This document shows, piece by piece, positions 23,788 through 43,959 of a stretch of 64,000 nucleotides of DNA. The DNA lies in contig DEIN01000003.1 in NCBI GenBank assembly GCA_002352465.1, positions 88,933 to 152,932 of the forward strand, written 5' to 3'. Each line of letters starts with the position of its first letter. The first letter of the stretch is position 1. This stretch comes from Patescibacteria group bacterium UBA2773. GTDB lineage: Bacteria; Patescibacteriota; Minisyncoccia; Moranbacterales; DUUL01. The notes below the pieces were generated by a model. That model saw only the letters and a program-made list of their open reading frames with translations. It searched no databases and was not told the origin of the DNA. Both the position numbers and the translations under genes were made by a program.

Positions 23788-24612
23788 TCATTGAAGTTTC
23801 CTTAAAAGTTCATCATGACTACAAAAGCCATTAGTCGCAAGCCAACCATCCTTATGGATAATCTTCCGCTTACTAAATGGCATTGGTGAGCCATCCAACG
23901 AAGTCATTTTACCTCCAAACTCCTCAAGAAGTAAAATGGCCGCGGCATAGTCCCATATATTTGCAGACTTACCATCTTGGGGAAAATACATCCCAGCTTC
24001 AACTCTTTCCAAGAGAATAGAGACGATTTTGATAGTCAATGTAGAAACAGGAATGGGTTTTAATCCACTTTTTTTAATCCGAGTCTTAAATTCAGAAATT
24101 TGAATCTGCCTCGGACTAACCGCGATTTTATTTTTATTCCCAATCGGTTCCTTTGCAACCAACTCTTTCCCATTGCAAATCACGCCTGTTCCTCTGCAAG
24201 CCGAAAATCTCAAATTGTCCTGTGGCATAAGAAGCATACCGACTTGAGAACTAAGATTGTTAACAGCAGAAAGAGAAATTGACCATTCATGACTTCCTCT
24301 GGAAAATTCTGATGTTCCGTCAATTGGGTCAATAATAAACACCCAGCCCTCATGAGGAATAATATCTCCTTTATTGTAATGCTCTTCAGCAAGAACAGGA
24401 ATTTTTGGAAAGAACGAGGAGAGAAATCTGATGCAAATTTCCTCTACTTCCCTGTCAACTTCAGTGACTATTTCCTTGCTTCCATTGGCACCTGTCTTGA
24501 AAAACGCAGTCGCCATTATTTGACGTTCAAAGCTGAAATATGTCTCTAAAACATTAGCCAAAGCATGAAATGCTTCCAAAATTCTTTTTTCCATTTCCAT
24601 ATCACCTCCCAA
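23788..24612 (-). CDS. Inositol monophosphatase family phosphatase (SuhB/CysQ-like)
   Basis: 'WVFIIDPIDGTSEF' IMPase metal-binding motif and 'WD' motif near the C-terminus. Confidence 0.8.
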   Translation of the reverse strand: MGGDMEMEKRILEAFHALANVLETYFSFERQIMATAFFKTGANGSKEIVTEVDREVEEICIRFLSSFFPKIPVLAEEHYNKGDIIPHEGWVFIIDPIDGTSEFSRGSHEWSISLSAVNNLSSQVGMLLMPQDNLRFSACRGTGVICNGKELVAKEPIGNKNKIAVSPRQIQISEFKTRIKKSGLKPIPVSTLTIKIVSILLERVEAGMYFPQDGKSANIWDYAAAILLLEEFGGKMTSLDGSPMPFSKRKIIHKDGWLATNGFCSHDELLRKLQ

Positions 24613-25729
24613 AAATGAACAGTGATTCGTTTATAATTTTGCAGGTTTCCAACAATCCAAGTTCTCTTGGATTTGAAGGAATATTACTACTCTGCAATGC
24701 TTCCAAGGCAATTCTTTTCACAGACAGATTACCAAACAAAGAAAGATTGTTGGAAATTTCCTCCGCCATCCCTGACTCCTCAATGATTGAACGAATCCAT
24801 GAAAGCAATCCATCACCAGAAGGAAGGCCCATAACTTTTTCCGCCTCATAAAATGAAGCTTCGCAATCTGCCAAATTGAATTTCATTGAGGCCTCAAGAA
24901 ATGTTACTACCGCCAATCCGTGATGCATCCCTGTAAACGCTCCAAGTGGATGAGACAAAGCATGAGCAATACTCAAACCAGTTCTTGGATAAAGCAACCG
25001 TGCCGTAAAAGCAATAGATTGCAATTTTTCTAATGCAGAGATGTCTTTTTTCACCAAAGCATCTTCCAGTGGTTCACGAACAGAACAGAGAAGCCCTTTA
25101 CTCACAATCCTAGTCAAAGCTGTTGCCTTTCTAGATATGTGAGATTCTAAAATATGGGTGAATGCATCCATTCCAGTTGCGGCAATCATAACTTTATCAA
25201 GAGAAATCAATGACTGAGGGTCAAGAATAACAGCAGTAGGCATAAAGAAAATACTTTCTATGCCTCTTTTTTTAGGAATATTAGGGTCCATAATAACAGC
25301 AAACGGACTGCTTTCTGCTCCTGTTCCACATGTCGTCGGAATAGCCACAAGAGGCACCGATTGAATTTTTGCTTTTTTATCACGAAAATAATCTTCGGCC
25401 ACCCCACCATTGATAGCTGTTAAACCGATAATCTTTGCCAAATCAATAGCACTTCCTCCGCCAACAGCGATAATGGAGTCATATTTTTCTTTACGAAGAA
25501 GACAGGCTCCATTATTAACCTGCAAAAAAGTTGGATTTGTTCCAAAATCATCAAACGATTCTCCAAAAAAATCCTCAAAAATTCTTCCAAAGTTTGATTG
25601 TCTGACCTTTGGGTCTATAACCAAAAAAGGTCGCTTGAGATTCATCTCTGTCAAAAGTTCAGACAAACAGCTAACACTGCCATTGCCCGAAATCAATTTT
25701 TTCGGAGTTGCCATATTCCAGTTTATCAT
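24602..25729 (-). CDS. Iron-containing (group III) alcohol dehydrogenase family oxidoreductase
   Basis: 'GGGSAIDLAK' NAD-binding motif, and 'GMDAFTHILESH' and 'AHALSHPLG…HHG' metal-ligand motifs. Confidence 0.75.
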   Translation of the reverse strand: MINWNMATPKKLISGNGSVSCLSELLTEMNLKRPFLVIDPKVRQSNFGRIFEDFFGESFDDFGTNPTFLQVNNGACLLRKEKYDSIIAVGGGSAIDLAKIIGLTAINGGVAEDYFRDKKAKIQSVPLVAIPTTCGTGAESSPFAVIMDPNIPKKRGIESIFFMPTAVILDPQSLISLDKVMIAATGMDAFTHILESHISRKATALTRIVSKGLLCSVREPLEDALVKKDISALEKLQSIAFTARLLYPRTGLSIAHALSHPLGAFTGMHHGLAVVTFLEASMKFNLADCEASFYEAEKVMGLPSGDGLLSWIRSIIEESGMAEEISNNLSLFGNLSVKRIALEALQSSNIPSNPRELGLLETCKIINESLFIFGR

Positions 25730-27135
25730 CTTTCACCTCCATCAATTTTCTTAATGATTTCTTTCGTTGCTTCGGCAATTGCCAGGGCTTTTTCCTTGTT
25801 ACTGGACTCTGCATATATACGCAGAAGTTCTTCTGTTCCAGCAGCACGAATATTAACCCAATCTCCCGACTCAAAAAAAAGTTTCAATCCATCAACCTCT
25901 CTTATTTTTGAGACCACTTGACCAGCAAGTTTTTCTGGAACTTCTCTCTTGAGTTTTTTCATAACAACTGCTGGAGAAATGAGAGACTTTAAATTAAGTC
26001 TTGAAAATCCAGATTTTCCCGCTATTTTCTCTACCTCTTTGAGAATTCCACTGATTCCCCCTTTATAAATTATTTCAGCCTCAGAAAGCAAAATAGCCGC
26101 AAGAGTAGCATCTCTTTCTGGCAGATAAAAACCAAATCCTATTCCGCCATTCTCCTCGCCAGCAATGAGAACTTTCTCGTTTCTCATTATTTCACATGCA
26201 TTCCTAAAACCAATTGGGGTTTCTCTGTAAACAAATCCCAAATAATTTGCCAGATAAGACAAACGCTTGCTCATCGTTACACTTCCGATAACAATTCCAG
26301 TTTGTTTTCGCATTTTTGCCAAATACCACAACAAAACCACTGTCACATCATTCGGAGACAAATATCCTATCTCTGGAATAACCGCCATAATTCTGTCACC
26401 ATCTCCATCATGCGCGATTCCCAAATCACACTTTCCGCCTGATATGACCCCTTGGAGTTTTTGAGTGTTGCTTTCCATTGGTTCCGGAGCAATTCCGCCA
26501 AAGTATGGGTCAAAGTCAGTATGTATTTCTAACACCTCAGCCTTACTCCCCCGAAGCACTCCTTTAAGAATGCCTTTTGTTGTTCCATGCATGGTATCAA
26601 CAGCGATTTTCAAAGGACGACCATTAAATACTTCCCAATCAATTATTGTCCTTAATTTTTGACAATAACCATTAAAGGGGTCGTCTTTTTTCAAGTCACT
26701 GTTTTCACAAATAACTCTATTTGTTCGAGAATTCATCAGATTTTGAATATCCAGAGTGAATTCTTCGCTTGGCGCACCACCATAACCCATACGAACCTTT
26801 ATGCCATTATAATCATAAGGATTATGAGACGCGGTTATGGTAATACCACAAATCATTGCTTTCTGGTTTGTTCTAAATGAAACCATCGGCGTAGGAATAG
26901 GCTTTGAGCTGATAAAAACATTGAGTCCAAATTGACTCAATACCTGACCAGCTTGCTTAGCAAATTCAAAACTAAGAAAACGAGTGTCATAACCGACAAA
27001 TGTTTCCGTTCCGCCATGTCTTAAAATATAACTGGAAATAGCCGTAGCAACTCTTCCAACAAAATCAAATGTGAAAGAATCTGCTATTTTCCCTCTCCAA
27101 CCATCAGACGTAGAACGAAGACTAATCTTGTCCAT
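25726..27135 (-). CDS. Phosphoglucomutase/phosphomannomutase family protein
   Basis: Active-site 'TASHNP' and metal-binding 'HDGDGDR'. Confidence 0.85.
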   Translation of the reverse strand: MDKISLRSTSDGWRGKIADSFTFDFVGRVATAISSYILRHGGTETFVGYDTRFLSFEFAKQAGQVLSQFGLNVFISSKPIPTPMVSFRTNQKAMICGITITASHNPYDYNGIKVRMGYGGAPSEEFTLDIQNLMNSRTNRVICENSDLKKDDPFNGYCQKLRTIIDWEVFNGRPLKIAVDTMHGTTKGILKGVLRGSKAEVLEIHTDFDPYFGGIAPEPMESNTQKLQGVISGGKCDLGIAHDGDGDRIMAVIPEIGYLSPNDVTVVLLWYLAKMRKQTGIVIGSVTMSKRLSYLANYLGFVYRETPIGFRNACEIMRNEKVLIAGEENGGIGFGFYLPERDATLAAILLSEAEIIYKGGISGILKEVEKIAGKSGFSRLNLKSLISPAVVMKKLKREVPEKLAGQVVSKIREVDGLKLFFESGDWVNIRAAGTEELLRIYAESSNKEKALAIAEATKEIIKKIDGGER

Positions 27136-27898
27136 TTTTATTTCCTCCTTTAATCAGTTCGCCATAGATTGTTTTCAGAATCCACGAATTGTTTTTAAGA
27201 ATTTCGTATCTAGAAGGAATTCCGTAATCCAAAAAAAATCCAAGCCCATTATTGACTGCACCAACCATTTTTGACAATACCAAAGCTGGCAATATGTCCC
27301 TCTCAAGCGACGAAATACCAGAAGGAAATATTGATAGAACTGACGAGCATTTCAGAAAATAACACCCAGTGCTACTTCCCCGAAAGTGACTACCGCCATC
27401 AATTGGCTCCTTTGTCGCTTCACCTTCGCAAAACTCGGTTACAATTCCATCTTCGACAAAGACCGCTCCTTGGTTAGGAACTTCTTTGTTTAAAGTCAGC
27501 ATAGCCGTCACTGGCATATCCAAAACTTTGTGAATTTCATACAAACGAAAAAAATCCAGGGACACTACAGTGTCGCCATTGCAAAGAAAGACATTTTCAT
27601 TGGAACAATTTTGGCAAGCAAATCTTGTTGCTCCACCTGTTCCAAGTGGACTATCTTCTTTAACAATTTTTACACCTCTGGAGCTCCAAAAATTTGTTGC
27701 AAAAACAGACTCAATCTGATTGCTTAATTTTCCAGTTGAAATGATAATTTCATTTAATCCTAGGCCAATAAACCAACTAACCAAATACTGAAGAAATGGA
27801 TAGTCAGCAAATTGAAGCATCGATTTTGGCGTTCTTAGGCAAACTTCACCCATTCTTGTCGCCAAACCACCAGCAAGAATTACAGCTGTTATTTTCAT
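27122..27898 (-). CDS. Sugar-phosphate nucleotidyltransferase (NTP-transferase domain)
   Basis: N-terminal 'AVILAGGLATRMG…PK' nucleotide-binding signature. 258 aa. Confidence 0.75.
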   Translation of the reverse strand: MKITAVILAGGLATRMGEVCLRTPKSMLQFADYPFLQYLVSWFIGLGLNEIIISTGKLSNQIESVFATNFWSSRGVKIVKEDSPLGTGGATRFACQNCSNENVFLCNGDTVVSLDFFRLYEIHKVLDMPVTAMLTLNKEVPNQGAVFVEDGIVTEFCEGEATKEPIDGGSHFRGSSTGCYFLKCSSVLSIFPSGISSLERDILPALVLSKMVGAVNNGLGFFLDYGIPSRYEILKNNSWILKTIYGELIKGGNKNGQD

Positions 27899-28066
27899 TT
27901 TCCCTTCCTCCTTTGTATCTAATTTGGATTATGCAGAAAAATCCTATTTTAAAAAATCTATTAACTTGTCAAAGAACATTAAAGACTACCTCAATTTGAC
28001 ATAGAAGTCAATTAGATGTATTAAATATTTGGATTTTTTCCCTTTTAAGGATTGTGAACAAACTGC

Positions 28067-28531
28067 CTATTTTCTCAAATTATTTCTATCAATTCCCCAT
28101 AGCTTTCTTAAAGCAAAAATGTAAAAGTAGGGATTTTTAGCTCTTTCTCCCATTATTTCATAATAATAACCAACAAAATCTTTAAGCGTTGATACCACAT
28201 TACTGAAAGACTCATCATAGTTGTTCTTTCCATCTGGTCTTCCTCTCTGTAAATTTATCAATTGTCTTCTACTAGTATTCAAAACCAGGGATAATCCTGA
28301 AATGGTTATTGGTCTGCCATTTTCAATATTGCTCTTTAAATAACCTATTCCTCCCTCAGCTAACTCTTTTGGACTATTTTTATAGGGTCTCCCGCCTTTT
28401 TCCGTTATACTGCTTCTTTTATCAAAATCGTCATCTGCTATTTCATTCAATCTGTTTTCTAGAAGCTTTAAATCCTCTGAAAACATTTTCTTATCTTCTT
28501 CGGTTATAGCGGTATTATTAGAATTTTGCAT
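28067..28531 (-). CDS. Phage terminase small-subunit-like / HTH protein (tentative)
   Basis: 154 aa with two 'GRP' motifs and 'ITISGLSLVLNTSRRQL', as in TerS-type HTH proteins. The assignment is uncertain. Confidence 0.35.
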   Translation of the reverse strand: MQNSNNTAITEEDKKMFSEDLKLLENRLNEIADDDFDKRSSITEKGGRPYKNSPKELAEGGIGYLKSNIENGRPITISGLSLVLNTSRRQLINLQRGRPDGKNNYDESFSNVVSTLKDFVGYYYEIMGERAKNPYFYIFALRKLWGIDRNNLRK

Positions 28532-28713
28532 TTTACTTTAGCTAGAAGTTATTAGAATTAAAGCTATTATTAAAATATCGCTTAACATCATCACTTGAAT
28601 TAAGAGTAATTCTAACATTCTAAGTTTTTAGTTCTTAAATCGGGTATATAAAAATAACCCTGTCTTTCCCTGAAATAGGTTCTAATGTCATCCACTACGC
28701 GGAGCCCTAAAGG

Positions 28714-29013
28714 TTAATGTGCTGTTTCAAGTATTGTATTGAAAGGAGAACGCACGTCAAACACTAGCTTTTTGCCAGAGAGACGGCAGTTCTGAAGTAG
28801 TAAATTCAAGAGCTGTCGTTTTTCGTTTGGTTCCGAACGCTCAAAGATTTCTTGCGCTCGATTTGCCAAAGAAAAGACCGTATTTGCAATGATATGATAG
28901 TTTTCATCTGCTTGAGTATATTCTTCCATTTTCTGAGTAATAACATATTGCTCTTCTTTTAGTTCTTTCATCTTTTTGTCATAGATCTCGCTAGTAATCC
29001 GACGGCTTATCAT
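28714..29013 (-). pseudogene. 3'-terminal fragment of a large serine recombinase gene
   Basis: 99 aa with only a coiled-coil plus C-terminal tail. 'NEKRQLLNLLLQNCRLSGKKLVFDVRSPF' parallels 'KKEILVALDSNLLLKDRKLFVKAQKPL' at the C-terminus of the intact recombinase (7441-9084). There is no catalytic domain upstream. Confidence 0.5.
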
Positions 29014-29028
29014 TAAGTCGTTTTTATT

Positions 29029-29691
29029 ATGAAAAAAAATATAAATTTAAAACTGTTAATTCTTGTAATAATCACCCTATCTTTTTTTATAGTCCTCTAC
29101 TGGTTTATTATAAAACCTTACCAAATCAGAAAAAATTGCGCTTTCATCGAAATAAAATCATATACACAAAAAGAAAAAGAAGAGGCTAAGAAATACCTTA
29201 TTAAAAATTGCCCTATCGTATCTAACAACATTGCTGAAAGAGTTATTTTTAATTATAAGAATGAAATAACTCAAGAATGCAAAGACAAAAAATACATAGT
29301 AATGTATGCTCCGATAGGCGATAAAAATCAAAAAAGACCCGCTAAAGATAACGAATATTTCAAATGTCTCAGAGAAAACGGCTTGGAATATTATCAAGAA
29401 ACTAAAACTGAATTTACACAACCAATAGAAAATACACCTGGGAATAAACCAACCAAAGAATTTAAAAGTATTATTCCGTCTTCTGAAAAAAAGTCAGTGG
29501 AATCCGTGATAAATAATATTAAACAAGATCAAGCACAAAAATGCCAAGAAAATTTGAATAAATACAATATCTGTTTAAGCGAATATAATTCCAAAATGGC
29601 AGAATACAATTCATGCATAAACGGAAATGGCTATACATCATTTTGTTCAAAGCCTTCTAATCTTTGTTTTAAACCATCTTGTGCATATTAA
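29029..29691 (+). CDS. Cys-rich membrane-anchored/secreted hypothetical protein
   Basis: 220 aa with an N-terminal TM anchor and 12+ cysteines in the predicted extracytoplasmic part. Confidence 0.4.
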   Translation: MKKNINLKLLILVIITLSFFIVLYWFIIKPYQIRKNCAFIEIKSYTQKEKEEAKKYLIKNCPIVSNNIAERVIFNYKNEITQECKDKKYIVMYAPIGDKNQKRPAKDNEYFKCLRENGLEYYQETKTEFTQPIENTPGNKPTKEFKSIIPSSEKKSVESVINNIKQDQAQKCQENLNKYNICLSEYNSKMAEYNSCINGNGYTSFCSKPSNLCFKPSCAY

Positions 29692-29960
29692 ATATGAAAA
29701 ATGAACATCTAAAAATAGCTTTGGTTTCTATAGGCTTTGGTACAATAACTTATATGTTTAGAGAGAATTTACGAACCAGTCTTTGGATTAGTTTTTTTGT
29801 TCTTAATCTCTATTATCTACATGGAAATTATCTAAAACAAGATTATGATAATTTAAACGATAAAATATCCTCTGTTTCATGTCTTGCTTGTACAATTATT
29901 TTTTTCTCAACTATTTTCTCGCTCTTGGCATATGAAATAATAAATTCAATAAATAATTAA
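29679..29960 (+). CDS. Small membrane protein (93 aa)
   Basis: ORF track; hydrophobic. Confidence 0.3.
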   Translation: MCILNMKNEHLKIALVSIGFGTITYMFRENLRTSLWISFFVLNLYYLHGNYLKQDYDNLNDKISSVSCLACTIIFFSTIFSLLAYEIINSINN

Positions 29961-29966
29961 AATGAA

Positions 29967-30155
29967 ATGAAAAAATCAATCAACAATAAGAAACTATTTC
30001 TAACTGGACCGGGACTTTTAATTTTCAGCAGACTTATTTTCTTTGTCTGGGATAGCATGGCAAGCGCTACGATAACAGTTATCCTGGACTTTATCGCCTT
30101 ACCAATTCTAGCAATTAGTTTCTTAAGATATTTAATTGGTATATTTAAAAAATGA
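29967..30155 (+). CDS. Small membrane protein (62 aa)
   Basis: ORF track; hydrophobic. Its stop overlaps the next ORF's start (ATGA). Confidence 0.25.
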   Translation: MKKSINNKKLFLTGPGLLIFSRLIFFVWDSMASATITVILDFIALPILAISFLRYLIGIFKK

Positions 30156-30643
30156 AAATAAAATTCAAAAAACCAATCGAGATCGATTTTGATGAATCGC
30201 CCTATTTATTTATTGAAGATCCTCAAACAGTGGATTTAATTAAATTAAATTTAAGAAAAAAACTCTCCAAGAAAAAACTGGGGATAGTCGAAGCTACTTA
30301 CAAACTACATACTCCAAAACAACTTATTGAAATGATAGATAGTCTAAAAAAAGAAATGGATTCAAGATACAAAGTCCTAGAAACAAACCAGATCTGGAGA
30401 GATCCTATTTTAAACGCCAAAGCAAAATCTAAAATGCCCTATATATTCCTTTGCATAGAAGATTTAACAGACTTTCTAATCAACAAAGAAATTAGAAAAG
30501 AACTCGAAAACAAATTAATTCAAATTGCTGGACTAGGCCGAGGAGCTAAAATTCACCTAATCTTCTCATGTCTCCCGATGAAAAAACACATCTTCCCAGA
30601 GATTCTTTTTACCAATATTCAATATCCCCTTTCTTCAAACTAA
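30152..30643 (+). pseudogene. FtsK/SpoIIIE-family ATPase fragment (Walker-B to C-terminal portion only)
   Basis: 163 aa. 'PYIFLCIEDLTDFL' resembles the Walker B region and 'IAGLGRGAKIHLIFS…IFPEILFTNIQYPLS' resembles the FtsK C-terminal 'RAAGIHLILATQRP…NIPTRIAF' block. No Walker A N-terminal domain precedes it. Confidence 0.4.
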
Positions 30644-31537
30644 TTTTAATATTTTTTCCGACTTTTCAATATCTTCATCGGAAAATTTTCCTATCACTGG
30701 CATTAGCTTTTCTTCGATCATTTCACTTATATACATTTCTTCTATGTTTCCATCTTTTTCAATCTCTATTTTTTCTGGTAAATCAATCATTAAAATTGGT
30801 AATTTTTTCAAAAATAAATTCTCATCGCTTTTTATTTGATCTTGAATTTCAAATACAAATAAAAGATAAATAATCTTTTGTTTTATATTTTTCTCATTAT
30901 TGGATTTTTCTTTGAACAAATCCAAATCAACTTCGCTAATAACCTCTAAATCTTTTATGGAGAAATAATTTTCTTCAAACAAATTTTTAAAATCTCCTGA
31001 AATAAAACTTTTATCCCAGTTTTCTTCTATAAAAATCTGTAAAAATTTTGTTAACTCATGTTTTAGTTTTCCATGGATTTTTTTTACAAACTCAATTTCC
31101 TCTTTTATAAAGTATTCAATTTTCTCTTCAGTTTCATAGTAGATTCTTCCGCTTGCATGAGAACAATTATTTCTAACTTGAACATGATTTTTACAAATAG
31201 TTATATCATTTATGTGAAAACGAAGCGATCTAAGCAATTTTTCCAAACTTGTTTTTTCGCTTATTTGAGACAAATCGAATAAACTACTAAACACTTTGTC
31301 TGTTTGATTATTCAGAGATTCGATAATGCTTTGATTTCCTTGTTCCCTTAAAAACCACTTTGTTTTATAAATAAAAATCATATTTAACATGTGAAAAGCC
31401 GTAAAAGCAAATTGATATTTGCCTTTCTCAAAATTCTCTCTATATGCCTCACTCAAGTATTCAACAAATTCATTCGCTTCTAAATCTACAAATCGTATCG
31501 GCAAATAACTTGAGATTGATTCTAAATACTCTTCCAT
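30635..31537 (-). CDS. Hypothetical 300-aa protein co-transcribed downstream of the R-M-S fusion enzyme
   Basis: Starts 12 bp after the RMS gene stop. No recognisable motif. Confidence 0.4.
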   Translation of the reverse strand: MEEYLESISSYLPIRFVDLEANEFVEYLSEAYRENFEKGKYQFAFTAFHMLNMIFIYKTKWFLREQGNQSIIESLNNQTDKVFSSLFDLSQISEKTSLEKLLRSLRFHINDITICKNHVQVRNNCSHASGRIYYETEEKIEYFIKEEIEFVKKIHGKLKHELTKFLQIFIEENWDKSFISGDFKNLFEENYFSIKDLEVISEVDLDLFKEKSNNEKNIKQKIIYLLFVFEIQDQIKSDENLFLKKLPILMIDLPEKIEIEKDGNIEEMYISEMIEEKLMPVIGKFSDEDIEKSEKILKLV

Positions 31538-31549
31538 GATAACTAAATA

Positions 31550-34435
31550 TTATTTACCCCAAACAGAGTCTAATTTATTCTTAATTTTCCTTTCAAAAAT
31601 TCTTATAATTTTTTTATTCGAGTTAATGAGAGTTTGTTCACTTTGAATTATTTCAGTAAGGTTGTTTTGCACATCTATATCAGGAAGTATTACCTCTAGC
31701 TGTTCAAAACTTTTCTTCGAAATTTCCTTAAAGGTTCCCCCAGAAGCCATGCAATTCATATGACCCACAAGTTTAGTAAGGATAAAAGCTACAAAATTAC
31801 TATTTATATTTTCTTTGTCTTTTATTATTATATTTTTAAAACCTTGATTTGTAGCCAATTGATTCATAACAACGCCAATTCTTCCTATCGTTGCACGAGA
31901 AGACACGACAATTGTTCCTTTTGGTAATAATTTTGCGGAAGATTCATTCAATCCTTTTTTTGTAATCTTTCTTTTACTCGTTGATATCTCTGTCACAAAA
32001 TCAGCACTGGGTAGATCAGCAAGTGTAATCCAATTAATATTTCCGCTCCAATAGTCCTTGTTCCTTGAATCTGGTGTACCACCAGATTGAATCTCAAATC
32101 TTTTTCTATCGCCTAATTTAACTCTTTTCCATTCTTCTTTAATCTCAATATTTGGCTTATAATTTTCAATTACCATTTTTGCTCCGTCTACAACTTTTCG
32201 ATAACCATCCAGTTCTTCTACAATTTGTTTTTGTATTTCTAATGGAGGAATCGGGACTCTTAAATTTGAAATTTCGGATAAATTAAGTGATGGATAATTT
32301 TGATCTACCGTCAAATCTTTTGAATCTACATGACACAAAAGGTAAAACAAAAATCTCGACAAAACCTTGCTTTTATCTACTAGAATAGTTGCCAAATGGC
32401 TTGATACAAACCCATCAACACCCAAAATTGCCCTGTGATTTAAAAAAGTAGAAGCTCCGCTCTTGGGTATTAAAATCGTCCCTCTTGGTATCAATTTTAA
32501 ATTCTTAATACCTTTTTTATTAAGTTTATCTCTTGATTTTAAAAGATTTGTTGTTGTGTGCGATATCGCAACGTCGGAAGTCCTAAAAAATGGATATTCC
32601 CCTTCCTTAAAAAATTTTTGTTCTTGCGGTGCTGAATTTCCCGATCCAATAGTTGCAATGTCTGATATTTTTAAGACTTCCCATTCGACATTTCCATAAT
32701 CAAACATTTTTTTATAACGACTTCCGACAAGCACTAGATCATTTTCCCTTATGTCTTCCATTTTAATCTGAGAAAAACCAACTTTCAAAGCTCCTTTCTC
32801 ATCTTCATTTTTGGGATCTCTGTATTCTAAGAATTGCTGTAAGTCAGTTTTTCCTTCGAGTTTTTTTCTATGACTATCTAGACTATAGCCATCATTTTTT
32901 ACATCGAAATACCAAACTTTTTCTTGTTTTTTCTTTTTCTTTATATTAGTGCAATACAAAATGTTTGTTTTAACTCCTGTGTAAGGAAGAAAAACTCCCT
33001 GAGGAAGAGAGATGACACTTTTCAAAGTGCATCTATCAAGCAAATACTCTCTTGTTTTCTGTAAATCCTTGCGAAACAGAAAGCCTTCTGGCACCACCAA
33101 TGCCATTCTTCCCTTCTCACTTGCTTTATCAATTGCTTTTATACAATGTTGAATACAAACACTATCGCCATTAGTGCTGGGTAAATCATAATAAGCTCCA
33201 TATTCAGTTTTTTGAGAATATGGCATATTAGTAATAACAATATCGTATTTATCATCAACTGGATTTTTTAAACTATTCTGCTGTTGAATTCCGCTATGTC
33301 CATCACCAATCAATATCATATTCATTTTAGTAATTCTTGCAGTTGTAGTAATTTCATTTCCGAAAAGTGTCTTTTCTTTTAATTGATTCCAATTTACCTC
33401 TGTTCTTGCCATGTTATGAGAAATGTGCTTAAAACTTTCAATAAGCGTACCACCTGTACCGCAGAAAGGATCGTAAACTGTTTCTCCAATTTGTGGATTT
33501 AAAAGCTTAACCATTACTTTCACGATATGTCGAGGAGTAAAATACTCACCTAAGTCATTTTTTGTCGCCGTTGATTGCTTTAAAAAATATTCGAAAGAAT
33601 CGCCTTTGATATCGGAGTCAATATTAATAAGATTTAAAGGATCTAATTTGTCAATTATTTTTTTTAAAGTATTGGGACTTTTGATTGTTAGAGGCGTAAA
33701 GATATCTTTATCCTTATAAGATTCTCCAATTTCTGGTAAGACTATTTTATTTATATGCAAAAGCAAATCTTGCCCTGTTTTATTCTTCCAACTGCTCCAT
33801 CTCAGATGCTTATCTAGCATAGTTGTATCACCTTTTTTCTCTTTTAAATCCTCTAACTCTCCAATCAATTTCAAAAACAGAATATTTGAAAATTCTCCAA
33901 ACCTTTCTATCCCCGCCCTAGAACCTTCGTCTCTTAGCAAATCGTTAGAGTCTTCAAATATTTTTATAAGCCTTTTTCTGTCGTAAATAACCTCCTTGGA
34001 AATTGTATCGACTTCATTGTCTTCGAGAAATTTTATCGCTTCCAATTCTCTAAATAGTTCATCCACTTCTTCTCCATTTAAAAACAAAGGCTTGTGCTTT
34101 TTTACATGTAAGGTCTTATAATAAATACCGTCCGTCGCAAACACAATTGGCGCTCCCAAGGCTTCAGCATATTCATCGCCTTGCTTGATTGCTTCATCTA
34201 AGTTTGCGCCTGGTTTTTTAGTTTCTATTATTATAATAGGTTCTTTCCTAGCTGAATTTTTTGCATACAAGACATAATCGGGCCTTTTCCCTTTTAATTT
34301 TTTTCTTTCTTCAACCGTCCTTGGTTGTTCCTGAAAAACATTGCAACCTTTCCCTGCGGTAAGATTCCAATCTAAATTTTTAAGTTGTTCATCTACTAAC
34401 GTCCTGATGCTCTGTTCTGTTTTGAATGTTTTCAT
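31550..34435 (-). CDS. Single-chain Type IIB/IIG-like restriction-modification enzyme (N-terminal PD-ExK nuclease + gamma-class N6-adenine MTase + two HsdS-like TRDs)
   Basis: 961 aa. HsdR-N-like 'IIIIETKKPG', MTase motif I 'DPFCGTGGTL', motif IV 'NMPY', and a C-terminal half with two S-subunit-like target-recognition repeats ('IATIGSGNSAPQ…', 'GGTPDSRNKDYWSG…'). No helicase domain. Architecture resembles AloI/TstI. Confidence 0.65.
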   Translation of the reverse strand: MKTFKTEQSIRTLVDEQLKNLDWNLTAGKGCNVFQEQPRTVEERKKLKGKRPDYVLYAKNSARKEPIIIIETKKPGANLDEAIKQGDEYAEALGAPIVFATDGIYYKTLHVKKHKPLFLNGEEVDELFRELEAIKFLEDNEVDTISKEVIYDRKRLIKIFEDSNDLLRDEGSRAGIERFGEFSNILFLKLIGELEDLKEKKGDTTMLDKHLRWSSWKNKTGQDLLLHINKIVLPEIGESYKDKDIFTPLTIKSPNTLKKIIDKLDPLNLINIDSDIKGDSFEYFLKQSTATKNDLGEYFTPRHIVKVMVKLLNPQIGETVYDPFCGTGGTLIESFKHISHNMARTEVNWNQLKEKTLFGNEITTTARITKMNMILIGDGHSGIQQQNSLKNPVDDKYDIVITNMPYSQKTEYGAYYDLPSTNGDSVCIQHCIKAIDKASEKGRMALVVPEGFLFRKDLQKTREYLLDRCTLKSVISLPQGVFLPYTGVKTNILYCTNIKKKKKQEKVWYFDVKNDGYSLDSHRKKLEGKTDLQQFLEYRDPKNEDEKGALKVGFSQIKMEDIRENDLVLVGSRYKKMFDYGNVEWEVLKISDIATIGSGNSAPQEQKFFKEGEYPFFRTSDVAISHTTTNLLKSRDKLNKKGIKNLKLIPRGTILIPKSGASTFLNHRAILGVDGFVSSHLATILVDKSKVLSRFLFYLLCHVDSKDLTVDQNYPSLNLSEISNLRVPIPPLEIQKQIVEELDGYRKVVDGAKMVIENYKPNIEIKEEWKRVKLGDRKRFEIQSGGTPDSRNKDYWSGNINWITLADLPSADFVTEISTSKRKITKKGLNESSAKLLPKGTIVVSSRATIGRIGVVMNQLATNQGFKNIIIKDKENINSNFVAFILTKLVGHMNCMASGGTFKEISKKSFEQLEVILPDIDVQNNLTEIIQSEQTLINSNKKIIRIFERKIKNKLDSVWGK

Positions 34436-34636
34436 TAAATTTATTTTTATTTTGACCCTAACAACAATAAACTTTTAATCAATAAAAAGCATACTCTATT
34501 TTATAATTTAATTTTATCTCAATTCTTCCAAAAGAACAATGTAAATTAGGTTATATTAAAATTGTTCCAAATTAATTTTCTAAATTTTAAACTAAACAGG
34601 TTCTAACACCCTCTACCCAACGGAGCAAACGCTTTT

Positions 34637-34672
34637 AAATGCCTTATCCGCCAGCTGGCGAATAAGGCATTT
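34637..34672. repeat. 36-bp near-perfect palindrome (aaatgccttatccgccag|ctggcgaataaggcattt); probable bidirectional terminator or binding site downstream of the RND operon
   Basis: Read directly from the sequence; one mismatch in the arms. Confidence 0.4.
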
Positions 34673-34819
34673 TAGTAGTTTAGGTTAACTTTTTGACTAT
34701 TTAAAAATTTTCATCCAGCTTTTTTCTAATTCACAGTAGTCTCACAGATTGTAATAAATTTTCAATATCTATTCTCTGTCAACAAATATGCTAGAAATCA
34801 AACAAATTTACTTTTTTGT

Positions 34820-37800
34820 TCATTTTTTGTTTCCTATTTTTCCAAACTCCACATAAACTCTTCTCGAAAATCTTTCGACTAAACTATACACAACAGGAAT
34901 CACTATTAGGGTTAATACGGTTGACACCAGCAATCCACCAATCACGGCAATTGCCATCGGACGCATCATTTCTGAACCCTCCTGTTTAGCCAAAGCCATT
35001 GGCAATATCCCTAAAAGAGTGGTAATAGAGGTAATTAAAATTGGTCTTAATCGCGTAGTTCCGCCTTCCACTAAAGCATCAAATTCGCTCATTCCTTTTT
35101 TACGTAATTGATTAACATAATCAACTAAAACAATCGCATTATTTACCACAATGCCGGCTAACATAATTATACCCATAAAAGATGGCAAAGATAATGATTG
35201 CCCTGTTATAAATAATGCCAATCCAACGCCAATAAAAGCCAACGGCAATTCAAACATCACAATGAATGGATGAATTAATGACTCAAATTGAGAAGCCATC
35301 ACCATATAAACCAGCAAAACACCAAGCGCTAAAGCTAGGGCTAAAGTGCCAAAGGTATCTTGCATTTGCTTATACGAACCGCCATATTCAATAAAATATC
35401 CTGATGGCATGTCAAATTTTTCTAGCTTATCCTTGATATCTCCCACCACACTACCAACGTCTCGATCTAATATATTAGAAGTTACTGACGCTACTCTTAA
35501 TTGATTTTCTCGATTAATCTTAATTGGTCCCTGGTCATATGAAATTTTTGCCACCTGCTTTAACAAAATCTGACCACCAAAAGAAGAGTTAATTGTTAAA
35601 TTTTCTATCTTTTCAATACTATCTCTGTCTGCTTTGTTATACCTAACTCTTATATCAGTTTCTTCACCTCCTTGACGAAATTGGGTAGCTATTGATCCTT
35701 GCATTGAACTTTTTACTAAAGACCCGATCTGTCCTACTGTTAATCCCAAATGCGAAGCCCTTTCTCTGTCAATCGCAATTAACAATTCAGGTTTTCCTTG
35801 GCTTAAGGTTGTATTAATATCTCGCACTCCATCGATACCCTTTATTTCATTGGCAATATTATCAGAAACTTTTTGCAAAACTTCTAAATCTTTACCAAAT
35901 ATTTTAATTTCAATTGGAGTACTAGCTCCGCCCATCATAGCACCAGCCATATCCATCGAGTTAAGCTCTAAACCATTTATTGATGGCTTATTTTGTCTAA
36001 TAATTTCAATAATTTGAGCACCGGACATTTTTCTTTCTTTTTTATCTTTAAGTTTAATAAGTATCATTGCTTCGTTTATACCTCCGCCCATCCCCATTGA
36101 AGCACCTTCCGCCATATCATCACTTTGTCCAACAAAACTAGTAGCACTCACAATACTTTCACCTACTTTTTTTGCTATTATCTCCTCTGTTAATCGTGTA
36201 GCATTATCAGTTTGCTTTAAAGATGTGCCTACAGGCATTTCAATTTGTAAAATCATAATGCTTTGATCGCTTTCTGGCATAAATTCTGTACCAATGAAAG
36301 GAACCATCGCAATTGTAATAATTAATAAGCTTATTGTAACTAAAATTGTTTTAAGCCGATTTTTAAGAGACCAAATAAGAATTTTCTTGTAGCTATTTTG
36401 CAATTTAATAAAACGATTCTCCCCTGAAGCTTTTCTATAATCTTTTACTTCTTCTCGTTTTTTAAAAATTTTTGAAGCTATCATCGGAACAAGTGTAAGA
36501 GCTACAAATAATGAAGCCAGCAACGCGAAAATTATTGTTAATGATAACCCACGGGATAATTGTCCTGCAATTCCAGTGCCAAGAGACATTGGTAAAAATA
36601 CCGCAATAGTCGTCAAAGTGGCCGTTGTAATCGCTAATGCAATCTCATTAGAACCAATGATTGCTGCCTTTCGTCTTTTACCAATTTTTTCTAAATGTCT
36701 ATAAATATTTTCAATTACAACAACAGCGTTATCCACTAACATTCCAATTCCCAATGCTAAACCACCTAAAGTCATTAAATTTAAAGTGTACCCAACAACA
36801 TAGAGCGGGATAAAAGTCGCAATCAACGAAAGAGGAATAGCAAAAGCAATCGCTACTGTGGGTCGCCAATTTCTTAAAAATATATATATAATAATAATTG
36901 CTAACAGTCCGCCAATTAAACCACTTTGAGTTACAGATTTTGTGGATGTTTCAATTTGTCTGCTTTGATCCATTACTAAAGAAAATTCAGCGTCTTTAGG
37001 TAAAAATTCTTTTAATTTTGGCAGTTCTTTTTTTATTGACTTCGCAACCTCTGTGGTGTTTGCGCCAGATTGCTTACTAATCATTAGAAGTAAACTATCT
37101 TTTTTGTTTGTGCGACTATGTCCTCTTATCTCTTCGTGTGTATCAATCACATCGGCTACATCATATAAATAAATCGGCGTATCATTTCTAATAATTAATA
37201 CTGTATTTTTTATTTCATCTAAATTTTTAAATTCTCCAACAGTACGAATAGGTAATTCAAGTAATCCCTGCTCAATAAATCCACCAGATAAATTAATATT
37301 TTCTCCGCGTAAAATTTGCACAATCTGAGATTGAGTTAAGTTATATGACTCTAATAATTGCTTGTTTAATTTAATTAAAATTTCACGCTTTTGTCCACCA
37401 CGTATTTCCATTGTAGCGACTCCATCGAGTCTTTCTATCTTGTCTTTAATGTTATCTTCTAAAACTTTTTTTAGCTCTAAGGTATTAAGACTATCGCATG
37501 TAACACCGTAACCAAGAACTGGCATAGCCCCAACATCCATTTTTATAACTAATGGTTTATTGGCGTCTTGTGGTAAATAATCTTCTATTAAACCAATCTT
37601 GTCCCTAACATCTTGAGCGGCAAAATCTATTTTAGTGCCACTATTAAATTCAATCATTACAATTGACGCACTTTCTTGCGAAATAGATTTAATTGTTTTT
37701 GCATCTTTAACTGTGGCAACAGCATCTTCAATCGGCTTAGTAATAATATCTTCAATGTCTTTAGGTGCTACTCCATTATATGAAGTAACAATTGATACCA

Positions 37801-37930
37801 CAGGGAACTCAATATCTGGAAGCATATCCACTCCCAAACGACTCAGAGAGACAAAACCAAAAACAACAATGATTAAAACCATCATTGTTATAGTCACTGG
37901 TCTATCGACTGAAAACTTTGGTAAACTCAT
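34820..37930 (-). CDS. RND efflux transporter permease (AcrB/HAE1 family)
   Basis: 1036 aa with 12 TM segments, two large periplasmic loops, and typical AcrB start 'RPV…MMVL…GFVS'. Confidence 0.88.
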   Translation of the reverse strand: MSLPKFSVDRPVTITMMVLIIVVFGFVSLSRLGVDMLPDIEFPVVSIVTSYNGVAPKDIEDIITKPIEDAVATVKDAKTIKSISQESASIVMIEFNSGTKIDFAAQDVRDKIGLIEDYLPQDANKPLVIKMDVGAMPVLGYGVTCDSLNTLELKKVLEDNIKDKIERLDGVATMEIRGGQKREILIKLNKQLLESYNLTQSQIVQILRGENINLSGGFIEQGLLELPIRTVGEFKNLDEIKNTVLIIRNDTPIYLYDVADVIDTHEEIRGHSRTNKKDSLLLMISKQSGANTTEVAKSIKKELPKLKEFLPKDAEFSLVMDQSRQIETSTKSVTQSGLIGGLLAIIIIYIFLRNWRPTVAIAFAIPLSLIATFIPLYVVGYTLNLMTLGGLALGIGMLVDNAVVVIENIYRHLEKIGKRRKAAIIGSNEIALAITTATLTTIAVFLPMSLGTGIAGQLSRGLSLTIIFALLASLFVALTLVPMIASKIFKKREEVKDYRKASGENRFIKLQNSYKKILIWSLKNRLKTILVTISLLIITIAMVPFIGTEFMPESDQSIMILQIEMPVGTSLKQTDNATRLTEEIIAKKVGESIVSATSFVGQSDDMAEGASMGMGGGINEAMILIKLKDKKERKMSGAQIIEIIRQNKPSINGLELNSMDMAGAMMGGASTPIEIKIFGKDLEVLQKVSDNIANEIKGIDGVRDINTTLSQGKPELLIAIDRERASHLGLTVGQIGSLVKSSMQGSIATQFRQGGEETDIRVRYNKADRDSIEKIENLTINSSFGGQILLKQVAKISYDQGPIKINRENQLRVASVTSNILDRDVGSVVGDIKDKLEKFDMPSGYFIEYGGSYKQMQDTFGTLALALALGVLLVYMVMASQFESLIHPFIVMFELPLAFIGVGLALFITGQSLSLPSFMGIIMLAGIVVNNAIVLVDYVNQLRKKGMSEFDALVEGGTTRLRPILITSITTLLGILPMALAKQEGSEMMRPMAIAVIGGLLVSTVLTLIVIPVVYSLVERFSRRVYVEFGKIGNKK

Positions 37931-37934
37931 AAAT

Positions 37935-39056
37935 TTATTGATTTTTTACTATTACTTTTTCTCCCTCTTCTAGCTCATAAGTTCCTCTTATCACCACCTC
38001 CTCATTTCCTACTAATCCCTCAACCACTTTTAATTTATCTCCAAAAGACTCAGTTTTAATTGTGACTATCTTATTTCTCGAATCACTACCAACTAAATAT
38101 ACTTTTTCTGTGTCACCTTCCATAAAAACTGCTGTCTGGGGGATTATTATGACATTGTCTTGCTTGGAAATAACTATATCTATTTGAGCTACTATTCCAG
38201 CTTTTATTTTTCCGTCTGCATTATCTAATTGAATTTTAACTGGAAATTTTTTGTTCCCCGAATCGGCCACTGAACTAACATAATGAACCGTTCCAATGAA
38301 TTTTTCATTTGGATAAGCTGCTAAATTAATTTCTGCCTTCTGCCCAACGGACACTTTATTAATGTCAAATTCAGTTAACGCTAATTCAATTTCTATGCTT
38401 TCAGTATTAACAATGTTCGCCACCGGACTACTTGTTGTAACCATTTCTCCTACCTTAGCATATATCTGATCAATCACACCTGAAATAGGTGCCACAATTG
38501 TGGTATTGCTCAATTTTGCTTGAGCAGAATCCAACTGTCCCTGAGCAATTGCAATTTTCAATTCTGCACTTTTCTTAACGCTAGAATAATTCGCTTCAGC
38601 CTGATCTTCCTCGTCACCATCGGCTATTTCTACTGCAACTTTAGCTGCTTTTTTTTCTTTTTTCATAGCAGCGATAGTACTATCTAAAGTAACCTTAGCA
38701 TTGTCATAAGCCACTAATAAAGTTCGATCTCTTTCCAGCTGAATAATAACTTGTCCGGCATCAACCCACGTCCCTTCTTTAAAATAAATATTAGCAACAT
38801 TACCTGTCATTTTAGAATTAATTTTGGCTTCGCTTGATGGTTTGGTCACCGAAGAAGTAGAAATATATTGATTCACAGTTTCTGACAATACTTTTTTCGT
38901 TTGAACAGTTGTTAAATCTCTACTAGAAACAGACTTTGAGTCATCCGTTACGTCGCTAAATGTTTTGAACAAGGCAAAGCTACCCATAGCTACTAACACG
39001 ATTACTAAAATAACACCTGATAATTTTTTTCGGCTATCTGTAATTAAGTTTTTCAT
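37935..39056 (-). CDS. RND efflux periplasmic adaptor (membrane fusion protein, HlyD/AcrA family)
   Basis: 373 aa with an N-terminal anchor, coiled-coil/lipoyl/beta-barrel pattern ('…VVIRGTYELEEGEKV…'). Confidence 0.8.
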   Translation of the reverse strand: MKNLITDSRKKLSGVILVIVLVAMGSFALFKTFSDVTDDSKSVSSRDLTTVQTKKVLSETVNQYISTSSVTKPSSEAKINSKMTGNVANIYFKEGTWVDAGQVIIQLERDRTLLVAYDNAKVTLDSTIAAMKKEKKAAKVAVEIADGDEEDQAEANYSSVKKSAELKIAIAQGQLDSAQAKLSNTTIVAPISGVIDQIYAKVGEMVTTSSPVANIVNTESIEIELALTEFDINKVSVGQKAEINLAAYPNEKFIGTVHYVSSVADSGNKKFPVKIQLDNADGKIKAGIVAQIDIVISKQDNVIIIPQTAVFMEGDTEKVYLVGSDSRNKIVTIKTESFGDKLKVVEGLVGNEEVVIRGTYELEEGEKVIVKNQ

Positions 39057-39077
39057 AATTAAAATATTTAATAAGCT

Positions 39078-39629
39078 TTATAATAGAACCTCAACAATCT
39101 GATCAGCAACCTTATCAGACCTAATTTTCTTGTTTAAAAACGAATATTCCAAAATTAATCCGTCCATCGTCCCAATCAATAGAGAAACCAATAACTCTTT
39201 GTTGACTATTTTTTTCACTCTATTATCAGCAAACATTTCTTCGATTACTGGATAGATTAGATCAACCCGTTGTTTTTTTAATTGTACGATGTGCTTTCTT
39301 ATTTGAGTATTGGTTGGCGATAATTTTAACATCACAGATTTAACGAGATTTTTTTCTTTCAAGCCAAAATCCAAATAATTTTTGATGAGTTTGTGTAATC
39401 TTTTATCAACCGTTTTCTCATTAAAAACTTCGGAAACAGACAAGCTCAAATCCCCGAATGCTTCATTAAGTACTTCTGTGTAAAGTTCCACTTTGCCGGT
39501 AAAATGATAATAAAGAGCGGCCTTAGTGATATTAAGTTTTTTAGCAATATCACTCATAGAAACACCTAAATAGCTGTATTCAGAAAAAAGATTACGAGCT
39601 ACATCAATAATGTGTTTTCTTGTGCCCAA
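39078..39629 (-). CDS. TetR/AcrR family transcriptional repressor
   Basis: N-terminal HTH 'ARNLFSEYSYLGVSMSDIAKKLNITKAALYYHF'. Confidence 0.85.
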   Translation of the reverse strand: MGTRKHIIDVARNLFSEYSYLGVSMSDIAKKLNITKAALYYHFTGKVELYTEVLNEAFGDLSLSVSEVFNEKTVDKRLHKLIKNYLDFGLKEKNLVKSVMLKLSPTNTQIRKHIVQLKKQRVDLIYPVIEEMFADNRVKKIVNKELLVSLLIGTMDGLILEYSFLNKKIRSDKVADQIVEVLL

Positions 39630-39691
39630 AAAAATGTCTTTATCTATTTTTTTAATTTTATTTATGACCTTTTAGTTTAATTTTTTAGTCT

Positions 39692-39709
39692 ACTTACCGA
39701 TCGGTAAGT
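39692..39709. promoter_or_regulatory. Perfect 18-bp palindrome ACTTACCGATCGGTAAGT; candidate TetR operator
   Basis: Located 63 bp upstream of the tetR-family start codon in the tetR/fic divergent region. Confidence 0.5.
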
Positions 39710-40032
39710 TATTTTAGTATACCGGAGTGCAAATTTTTGTCAAGTAATGCAACACTATCATTCTGCTCTCAACTCGACTCAAAAAACTCATGCTTAAGCA
39801 TAGAAAAGATACATTGAATATCAAACAACATTATTATAATCAAGATTTATTAAGAATTCCCATAACTAAAGTTCCCAAGCACATCCACCAGGGGGGGAGC
39901 AAACGAAAAAATCACTTTCTTTATTTAGACAGTGATTTTTTTAATACTCTAAATCAAATTTTGAATTTATATTAACGATTTTTCTTAATATGGTATAATG
40001 CAAAGAATAATCTAAACCATATTAAGAAATTT

Positions 40033-40437
40033 ATGCAATATCTAAACAAAAAACTTCAAATAAGGATCGATGGGAAGCTAAAAAAACTTAACTCATTCCG
40101 TCCGCTTCCAGTTTCTGCTGTTAAAAAACTTAAAGAACAATTTGAAATAGAGATGACTTACAATTCCAATGCCATCGAAGGCAATAGTCTAACCCTAGAA
40201 GAAACCTATTTAGTAATAAATGAAGGACTAACCATAAAAGGAAAATCTCTCAAAGATCATCTTGAGGCAAAAAACCATCAAGAAGCCTTGGAATATTTAT
40301 ATGACCTAACTGAATTTAATAAAAAAAATACTCTTTCAGAAAATTTAATCAAATCGCTTAATCAAATAATTCAGCAAAGCATTGATGGTGTATTGAACCT
40401 TCCAGGAAGATGTTTCTTTCAGATAAATATTTTGTAA
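40033..40437 (+). pseudogene. fic: Truncated Fic/Doc-family gene (N-terminal region only)
   Basis: 134 aa containing 'MTYNSNAIEGNSLTLEETYLVINEG', the conserved Fic N-terminal block. The catalytic HPFx[DE]GNGR motif is absent and no frame continues it. Promoter with extended -10 'tggtataat' at 39991-39999, flanked by an 11-bp inverted repeat (39984-39994 / 40016-40026). Confidence 0.55.
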
Positions 40438-40567
40438 ATTTTGACGATTTTCATTTTACCCCAACAAATATGTTTTTTCTTAATTTTACAATTCTTTGTT
40501 CTTCAAGCTGAGTTATTTCCTTTCTTCTTGTCCGAAGTGGCACTTTTGATTTATCTTCCAATCGGCA

Positions 40568-40624
40568 AAGACTGGCTACTTCGATTAGATTTAAACCAGC
40601 CCAATCACAAGTTTGATCGATGAT
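40568..40624. repeat. 57-bp exact copy (degenerate to ~40650) of the 3' coding end of the GT-C glycosyltransferase gene
   Basis: Identical to 41557-41613. With the partner, it brackets the PEP-CTERM gene. Confidence 0.8.
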
Positions 40625-40773
40625 GATATCTTCTTTTAAGGCTTTAATTTAAATTACTTTTTTGAATTAAAGATATATTTTATCTAAAAAAAATCCAAAT
40701 TAAAATATTAAAAAAATCCTTCAGTTTTTAAAAAACTGAAGGATCTACTCTACTCAAATATTATCAAGCAGAA

Positions 40774-43957: not shown

Positions 43958-43959
43958 TT

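Follow-up and report, generated by a model that had tools for sequence, protein, structure and literature searches.

Why should a gene for a 300-aa protein, called 'hypothetical protein' in every source, stand directly behind that of a single-chain restriction-modification (R-M) enzyme whose architecture had been taken to act alone? The question is raised by a stretch of 64,000 nucleotides from contig DEIN01000003.1 of Patescibacteria group bacterium UBA2773 (the window, whose positions serve as coordinates throughout), in which a 961-aa restriction-modification-specificity (RMS) protein is encoded at 31550..34435 and its 300-aa partner at 30635..31537, both on the minus strand, with a 12-bp spacer (TATTTAGTTATC, 31538..31549, minus strand) between the RMS stop and the partner start. 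The original prediction considered this linkage unexpected and offered four roles for the partner: specificity modulator, controller, abortive-infection partner or anti-restriction sensor. From conserved residues and modelled structure, we identify the partner as a divergent HEPN-superfamily protein, a predicted RNase. The pair is a mobile two-gene module in which the RMS protein can stand alone and the partner essentially never does. We propose that the two would act as one defence operon with two layers, the second being released when the first fails, and we give this statement as a whole (HEPN RNase plus guard-type release) a probability of about 0.5.

We surveyed the linkage of the two genes from both sides. 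Starting from the partner, six unrelated neighbourhoods recovered by exact look-up and 20 loci in named genomes were examined with tblastn and Pfam; an intact methylase-specificity (M-S) or R-M-S fusion lies upstream in the same operon in 26 of 27 loci. Starting from the RMS protein, a scan of metagenome contigs with a nuclease-methylase alignment gave 80 loci (55-85% identity, mostly human gut), and the partner is immediately downstream in 70 of the 75 that have at least 700 nt of downstream sequence; in the other five, an apparently intact RMS homologue is followed by unrelated genes. The median stop-to-start distance is 6.5 bp, and 92 of the 96 loci fall between -1 and 49 bp. This linkage is far above chance, and bears out the tight, operon-like association that had been predicted from the window. 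In close relatives found from the partner side (metagenome-assembled genomes, MAGs, of WOR-3, Phycisphaerales, Flavobacteriaceae and Cloacimonadota), the upstream gene is an R-M-S fusion of 777-961 aa that ends 4-25 bp before the partner, and in distant relatives (Massilia, Novispirillum, Pseudomonas, Caballeronia, Bacteroidales, Ignavibacteria and others) the operon runs from an HsdR-like nuclease-helicase (~850 aa) through an M-S fusion (645-850 aa) to the partner (~240 aa). What lies on either side is different in each context, so the RMS gene and its partner move as a module.

The two proteins also diverge together: pairwise identities of the partner and of the N-terminal 580 aa of RMS are correlated at r = 0.98 (Mantel p = 0.001), the partner tracking the nuclease-methylase core while the target recognition domains (TRDs) vary freely. 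With TRD identity (22-60%) uncoupled from partner identity, and with neither TRD nor helix-turn-helix similarity in the partner itself, we rejected the roles of specificity modulator and controller.

These figures bear on an alternative in which the partner would be an independent abortive-infection (Abi) or direct anti-phage RNase that senses phage itself and cuts phage or host RNA, like AbiD/F, RnlA/LsoA and ApeA, so that the shared operon would reflect co-mobilisation and co-expression only, the two being coupled neither physically nor in regulation. Action alone is known for many solo HEPN Abi proteins (PMC3710099, PMC13064643), and such independence would suit both the five RMS homologues that have no partner and a single locus, L012, in which the partner is intact beside a destroyed R-M gene. 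Co-location in defence islands, however, rarely yields 93-96% adjacency with a median gap of 6.5 bp across phyla and two genetic codes, a correlation of 0.98 is unusual for mere co-location, and in the 27 partner-side loci the partner is always found with an M-S-type gene or its remnant. We consider it unlikely that the partner works on its own. At L012 itself (2801-6837, an Ignavibacteria MAG), all that is left upstream of the partner is a TRD remnant of 179 aa, before which come a SpoIIE phosphatase gene and the DDE transposase of an insertion sequence (IS); the R-M gene has decayed there and the HEPN gene has survived.

The identity of the partner had to be sought beyond the curated databases. 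Nothing usable was found for it in Pfam, NCBIfam, PADLOC (v2) or PHROGs, nor among PDB sequences (phmmer, and hmmsearch with two family alignments), and no source gives a name to either window protein. Relatives are nonetheless numerous: a word-indexed search returned 98 clusters at E<=1e-19, nearly all ~300 aa long and 40-69% identical, and an exhaustive profile search returned 377 representatives at E<=0.001, 195 of them at E<=1e-10. The partner thus stands for an undescribed and unnamed family of about 200-400 sequence clusters, in the wider set of which conservation is confined to the N-terminal ~210 residues and distant members are mostly ~240 aa long. Only M53, R122 and H127 are invariant across 48-74 homologues down to ~21% identity, and in 40 close homologues R122, C125, H127 and G130 are all invariant within RNxCSHASG. 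The predicted catalytic motif, R122-N-N-C-S-H127 followed by A-S-G130 (31157..31174, minus strand), has the Rx4H form, and Rx4-6H with a polar residue after the arginine is the catalytic signature of HEPN RNases (PMC3710099). Among the partner copies from all loci, R-[N/D]-x3-H-x2-G is retained in 99 of 101, the exceptions being one cut by a contig end and one at L107.

Profile and structure comparisons point the same way. Relatives of the partner match just one named family repeatedly, RiboL-PSP-HEPN (PF18735, a member of the Abi2/AbiD/AbiF/Swt1 branch): 21 of 48 profile-reached relatives match it sub-threshold (best E 4.4e-6, cut-off 28.4 bits), and a precomputed PF18735 annotation exists for 12 of the ~245-aa relatives, whereas HEPN_MAE_28990, Swt1 and DZIP3 are each touched by single relatives. 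The window partner has no match to PF18735 at E<=0.1 and does not reach the gathering threshold of 28.4 bits. It has in common with RiboL-PSP-HEPN an RNxxxH-type motif and a modelled all-alpha fold; it differs in an extra C-terminal region of ~120 aa, in that the matches of its relatives lie below or near 28.4 bits, and in context, type members of the named family being fused to L-PSP endoRNase or placed in ParB operons, not in R-M operons (PMC3710099). AlphaFold models of the partner are all-alpha, at full length (pLDDT 91, pTM 0.88) and for the core of aa 1-178 (31004..31537, minus strand; pLDDT 95.3, pTM 0.90), and this HEPN-like core, delimited from the AF2 model, from profile matches that span positions ~1-210 and from Foldseek, is common to the ~245-aa distant relatives. 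Searched against the PDB with Foldseek, the sole compact matches of appreciable probability are HEPN proteins (HepT 7bxo and 6m6u; 2q00/2jpu; 2hsb; 5yep), with probabilities of 0.4-0.77 and TMt of 0.5-0.6. The active site would then be R122...H127, and the predicted activity that of a metal-independent endoribonuclease.

Beyond the core lies a subfamily-specific C-terminal region (aa 179-300, 30638..31003, minus strand), modelled as helices with a beta hairpin at aa 256-269, which is reduced or missing in distant relatives; the partner of a large gut clade matches profile positions 4-237 only. We regard this region as a candidate RMS-docking or regulatory part. The dyad itself could in principle be ornamental, the partner being a non-catalytic accessory subunit, an HEPN-like protein whose binding to RMS or to nucleic acid would adjust oligomerisation or the balance of methylation and cleavage. 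Some HEPN domains are indeed non-catalytic, as in AbiA dimerisation (PMC13064643) and MtlR (PMC3710099), and TstI methylates and cleaves unmodified sites at similar rates (PMC4027205), so that enzymes of its type would need such control. One natural copy fits as well: the partner at L107 (4951-5742) is the only full-length copy that has no dyad (VEDKNEMFRANG; K...R replaces R...H), and may be an inactivated or repurposed variant. Two of the three residues invariant down to ~21% identity are nevertheless the arginine and histidine, a pattern that marks catalysis, not a scaffold, and the five stand-alone RMS homologues look intact with no such subunit beside them. An accessory role is accordingly quite improbable.

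The RMS protein is a single chain that combines restriction, modification and specificity and has no helicase. Its N-terminus (aa 1-160, 33956..34435, minus strand) is a PD-(D/E)xK nuclease domain of HSDR_N type that has no helicase motor, with D53, E71 and K73 as predicted catalytic residues and matches to Pfam HSDR_N_2 (1e-7) and HSDR_N (1.9e-7), which cover aa 46-115, and to the NCBIfam EcoAI-family R N-terminus (3e-9). An HsdM-like gamma-class N6-adenine methyltransferase follows at aa 164-577 (32705..33946, minus strand), supported by Pfam HsdM_N and N6_Mtase (aa 274-576, E 7e-55), by PADLOC MTase_I (2.5e-83) and by PDB matches. Two stretches of Pfam Methylase_S (E 2e-39) mark the specificity part, in which TRD 1 spans aa 584-744 (32204..32686, minus strand; PADLOC Specificity_I, Pfam Methylase_S) and TRD 2 aa 767-943 (31607..32137, minus strand; the best Methylase_S stretch, and PDB 1yf2). 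The motifs quoted in the original prediction are all present, namely IIIETKKPG, motif I DPFCGTGG (aa 322-329) and motif IV NMPY (aa 403-406), and DPFCGTGG precedes NMPY with the TRDs C-terminal, which is the gamma-class order. No helicase or ATPase family (ResIII, Helicase_C or SNF2 at E<=0.1 in Pfam, PADLOC and NCBIfam) matches the protein, whereas such families are present in the R subunits of L014, L016 and L110. D53, E71, K73, DPFCGTGG and NMPY are invariant in an alignment of 8 orthologues of 59-79% identity; the RMS gene is therefore under selection and no pseudogene.

The filing of the enzyme with AloI, TstI and CjeI is one by architecture. AloI, TstI, PpiI and HaeIV (Type IIB) likewise place endonuclease, methyltransferase and bipartite recognition in one polypeptide that has no translocase (PMC4027205), and from its two TRDs the RMS protein should recognise a bipartite site. 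In a PDB search, however, its M and S modules matched Type I HsdM structures (1e-38 to 1e-30) and the Type I S subunit 1yf2 (2.5e-45), whereas RM.BsaXI, the one Type IIB enzyme with a solved structure and the sole one in that set, matched with E 6e-10 over 117 aa (aa 392-508); at 961 aa it is also ~290 aa shorter than the 1251-aa TstI (PMC4027205). By these matches the nearest relatives of its M and S modules are Type I HsdM/HsdS, and 'Type IIB-like' is best read as a label of architecture, with two-sided cleavage and tetramer formation as putative properties. Compared with classical Type I R-M systems, in which a motor HsdR, HsdM and HsdS are separate, RMS is one fused, motor-less chain with Type I-like M and S.

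The distant operons of R, M-S fusion and HEPN gene in Proteobacteria and Bacteroidota (such as Novispirillum, L014, and Paracoccus, L111) help to place this fusion. They contain the same partner family, 25-32% identical over the ~210-aa core, and there too the partner stands directly after the M-S fusion gene; they differ in that the nuclease is on a separate HsdR-like helicase subunit of ~850 aa and that the partner, at ~240 aa, has no C-terminal extension. Pairwise BLAST between the RMS nuclease domain and the helicase-type R subunits of this distant clade is marginal (E 0.005-0.013), and their relation appears to hold at the level of Pfam families, mainly through shared HSDR_N matches. In this sister clade the motor subunit HsdR is still separate; the clade of the window resembles a derivative of Type I whose M-S part is joined to an HSDR_N-type nuclease domain and which has no motor.

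Whether the two genes are expressed together depends on signals around them. The open reading frame (ORF) list reproduces the layout as it had been described: ORFs of 961 and 300 aa, a gap of 12 bp, and a 163-aa convergent ORF (30152..30643, plus strand) that overlaps the 3' end of the partner gene by 9 bp. The last is weakly FtsK/SpoIIIE-like (PHROG 1.9e-12, PADLOC SspH 7e-9, NCBIfam EssC 2.9e-7, Pfam 0.015). The RMS and partner ORFs share a reading frame, by chance. A scan of the 12-bp spacer found neither a Shine-Dalgarno-like sequence nor any pattern of a promoter or terminator, and a strong 16-bp hairpin (34637..34672, minus strand; fold -28.2 kcal/mol, z = -5.55) between the RMS gene and the upstream RND pump gene is probably a terminator that sets RMS and the HEPN gene apart as their own transcription unit. 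Because the spacer is free of such signals and the hairpin separates the pair from the pump gene, co-transcription is likely, as judged from these local signals. A promoter-like site (TTGAGA-18-TAGAGT, 34493..34522, minus strand) lies 58 bp upstream of the RMS start; it is a consensus match only, and weak, since such sites are fewer in the region than expected from shuffling.

The same compact layout weighs on the idea of a Type III toxin-antitoxin (TA) system like AbiF or AbiV, in which a repeat RNA encoded in cis would neutralise the HEPN toxin and RMS would have no part in controlling it. RiboL-PSP-HEPN, the nearest clade with a name, is distantly related to AbiD/AbiF (PMC3710099), and AbiF and AbiV are systems of protein plus RNA (PMC13064643). 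The locus leaves no space for an RNA gene, however, with 12 bp between the genes, a median of 6.5 bp elsewhere and a convergent ORF over the 3' end; no tandem-repeat array scores above 39, and no Rfam family matches at E<=0.5 in 29800-35000. We therefore rejected an RNA antitoxin and hold a Type III system to be extremely improbable.

How, then, might the two proteins work together? In the model that we propose, the first layer would be the RMS protein, methylating host DNA and cutting unmethylated incoming DNA near its bipartite site in a Type IIB-like manner; single-chain Type IIB enzymes methylate a bipartite site and cut unmodified DNA nearby (PMC4027205). The second layer would be the partner as an HEPN RNase, latent in uninfected cells, most likely through association with RMS, and unleashed once restriction is blocked or overwhelmed, for instance by an anti-restriction protein of a phage. 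The freed partner would cut cellular or phage RNA, and the infection would be aborted. The analysis itself establishes the domain content, the strict conservation of the dyad, the nearly obligate linkage in both directions and the co-divergence of the genes; the RNase activity, the latency, the contact with RMS and the trigger are inferred. That an HEPN RNase is functionally coupled to the RMS enzyme in defence seems to us very probable; the specific guard-and-release step, drawn by analogy, falls a little short of even odds.

The analogy is with the anticodon nuclease PrrC. Anantharaman et al. (2013, PMC3710099) described HEPN genes in R-M operons in at least 16 clades and set out a multi-pronged model of defence, so that calling the linkage unexpected was an overstatement. 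In their account of PrrC-EcoprrI, restriction is the first line and a latent RNase the second, released when restriction is neutralised (PMC3710099). EcoprrI is a Type Ic system with the order hsdM-hsdS-prrC-hsdR, and both there and here the specificity module of an R-M operon is immediately followed by an HEPN RNase gene, predicted in our case. The same study found HEPN domains fused to nucleases and helicases and not to methylases (PMC3710099), and here likewise the HEPN protein is a separate gene. Several observations favour a PrrC-type reading: the partner depends strictly on an M-S-type gene, its catalytic dyad is invariant, neither a second conserved gene fit to be an antitoxin nor an antitoxin RNA was found, the family includes HEPN-TIR fusions, one of them inside an operon of R, M-S, HEPN-TIR and TIR genes (L110), and at L014 an AAA_21/SMC ATPase gene follows the partner. 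The abortive-infection and anti-restriction-sensor roles fit the HEPN identity, and fit best of the four originally offered.

There are differences from PrrC, too. EcoprrI is a three-subunit, helicase-driven Type I system, whereas here R, M and S form one helicase-less chain. PrrC is regulated through an ABC-ATPase domain at its N-terminus, whereas the 300-aa partner matches no ATPase family in Pfam, PADLOC or NCBIfam, and no sequence similarity of the partner to PrrC was detected.

Five points weigh against the two-layer model. The window partner matches no curated HEPN model in Pfam, NCBIfam, PADLOC or PHROGs. As it has no counterpart of the ABC-ATPase regulatory domain, the analogy with PrrC may fail mechanistically. 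RNase activity, toxicity and an effect on phages are predictions for every member of the family, all of which the sources call 'hypothetical protein'. The co-divergence correlation is partly clade structure, and proves co-inheritance and not physical contact. At L012 the partner has outlived its R-M gene, which argues that RMS is not strictly needed to neutralise it.

A more specific form of the proposal can be framed as guarded restriction. The HEPN RNase would dock on RMS through its subfamily-specific C-terminal region and be released, or switched allosterically, when a DNA-mimic anti-restriction protein of a phage fills the DNA-binding groove of RMS, which would thereby also serve an abortive-infection effector as its sensor of infection, with TIR exchanged for or added to the RNase in relatives. 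These steps taken jointly are tentative, and we hold them to be rather less likely than the broader two-layer model.

Family members that depart from the usual layout show what can accompany the pair. A TIR domain is found at the C-terminus of four members (P0113, P0133, P0134 and P0190), and at L110 (5224-7455) the operon consists of an HsdR-like gene, an M-S fusion, a 200-aa ORF and HEPN-TIR, followed by a TIR-only gene. At L014 (6740-9586, Novispirillum itersonii) a 948-aa AAA_21/SMC_N ATPase is encoded after the partner, the only locus with such a separate gene; its layout recalls the ABC-ATPase plus HEPN arrangement of PrrC/RloC, split in two genes. At L026 (4615-5749) a DUF3800 gene and a 172-aa ORF stand between the M-S fusion and the partner, making it one of only four loci in which the gap exceeds 200 bp.

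The contexts in which the module travels are equally varied. On the mobilizable 214-kb plasmid pPZ02 of Paracoccus zhejiangensis (L111, 176993-191397), an operon of helicase, M-S fusion and partner, named in RefSeq 'DEAD/DEAH box helicase', 'N-6 DNA methylase' and 'hypothetical protein', adjoins a Tn7-like set of TniQ, TniB and Mu-transposase genes and a DUF6602 gene. A serine recombinase and a small gene adjoin the module at L005. On the metagenome contig L006 it lies in a prophage- or satellite-like region (TerL, HNH, VapE-like primase), flanked by an AbiV-type HEPN gene and a putAbiC gene (2822-3454, 8959-10047) in a small defence cluster. When plasmid and phage protein collections were searched with the partner, each gave one distant match, that in the phage collection being an unannotated 9.7-kb fecal contig. 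Metagenome contigs from the human gut contribute a large clade (L040-L109, ~60 loci), in which the RMS protein is ~980 aa long (57-60% identical) and the partner ~260 aa. RMS orthologues at L003/L004 (5660-7993), L030 (161-3000) and L031 (3014-5700), which are 74-83% identical to the window RMS, contain 7-14 in-frame TGA codons that align almost only with invariant glycine columns; their hosts therefore use genetic code 25 (Gracilibacteria/Absconditabacteria type). The window partner gene ends in ...KLV-TGA, with TGA as a stop, and the module has thus crossed a genetic-code boundary.

A further alternative is an addiction module, in which the HEPN toxin would stabilise the mobile cassette: loss of the cassette or of RMS expression would free a longer-lived toxin that kills the segregant, and the primary role would be selfish maintenance and not defence. 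The varied flanks, the Tn7-like neighbour on the Paracoccus plasmid, the recombinase at L005 and the prophage-like surroundings at L006 would all suit such an element, and HEPN toxins are frequent in TA systems (PMC3710099). R-M systems alone already give post-segregational killing, however, and no antitoxin gene or RNA was found; the state of L012 shows that a host can survive losing the R-M gene while it keeps the toxin, and the TIR fusions indicate the logic of an immune effector. We judge addiction improbable, more so than an independent RNase.

The surroundings of the locus in the window itself are less orderly. Between housekeeping sugar-nucleotide genes and the module runs a low-GC stretch (27-29%, 28067..30643) that holds a terminase-small-subunit-like ORF (154 aa, PHROG 2.7e-4, weak), a 99-aa ORF that is weakly integrase-like, three small hydrophobic ORFs and the 163-aa FtsK/SpoIIIE-like fragment; it is probably mobile-element debris. 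A search for mobile-element boundaries in 27500-35200 found AT-rich chance repeats only and no flanking repeats, and neither the recombinase nor the small gene beside the module at L005 is related to the small ORFs at 28067-29013. Further away, a 326-aa ORF of the Phage_integrase family (22009..22989, minus strand) has immediately upstream a full-length LOOT RNA (22973..23096, minus strand; Rfam RF03000) that extends over its start and scores 85 bits, the gathering score being 46. GC skew is negative in all 1-kb bins of 1..64000 (cumulative -16) and long ORFs are mostly on the minus strand, consistent with a single replichore and an orientation bias between lagging and leading strands.

The general idea that applies to this locus has a history. 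Since 2013, R-M-embedded HEPN genes have been proposed as second-line suicide RNases guarded by the restriction complex (PMC3710099). What is known, then, is an HEPN second-line effector in an R-M operon; what is new is this partner family, together with variant features, namely a single-chain helicase-less R-M-S enzyme, no ATPase and no antitoxin found. To our knowledge, and judging by the papers searched, the experimental basis of the guarded-HEPN hypothesis is still essentially PrrC-EcoprrI. We know of no HEPN partner for AloI or TstI, and a literature text search for 'Type IIB' with 'HEPN' returned nothing relevant. The pair, conserved across many phyla, two genetic codes and the human gut, means that, in reading methylomes or restriction barriers, R-M-S enzymes of this architecture cannot be presumed to work alone. 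It also offers a simpler test case for the guard hypothesis, one R-M-S polypeptide plus one HEPN protein of 240-300 aa, and if guarded restriction is true, this compact and gut-abundant pair would let the guard hypothesis derived from PrrC be put to a direct test, with no need for a Type I complex of several subunits.

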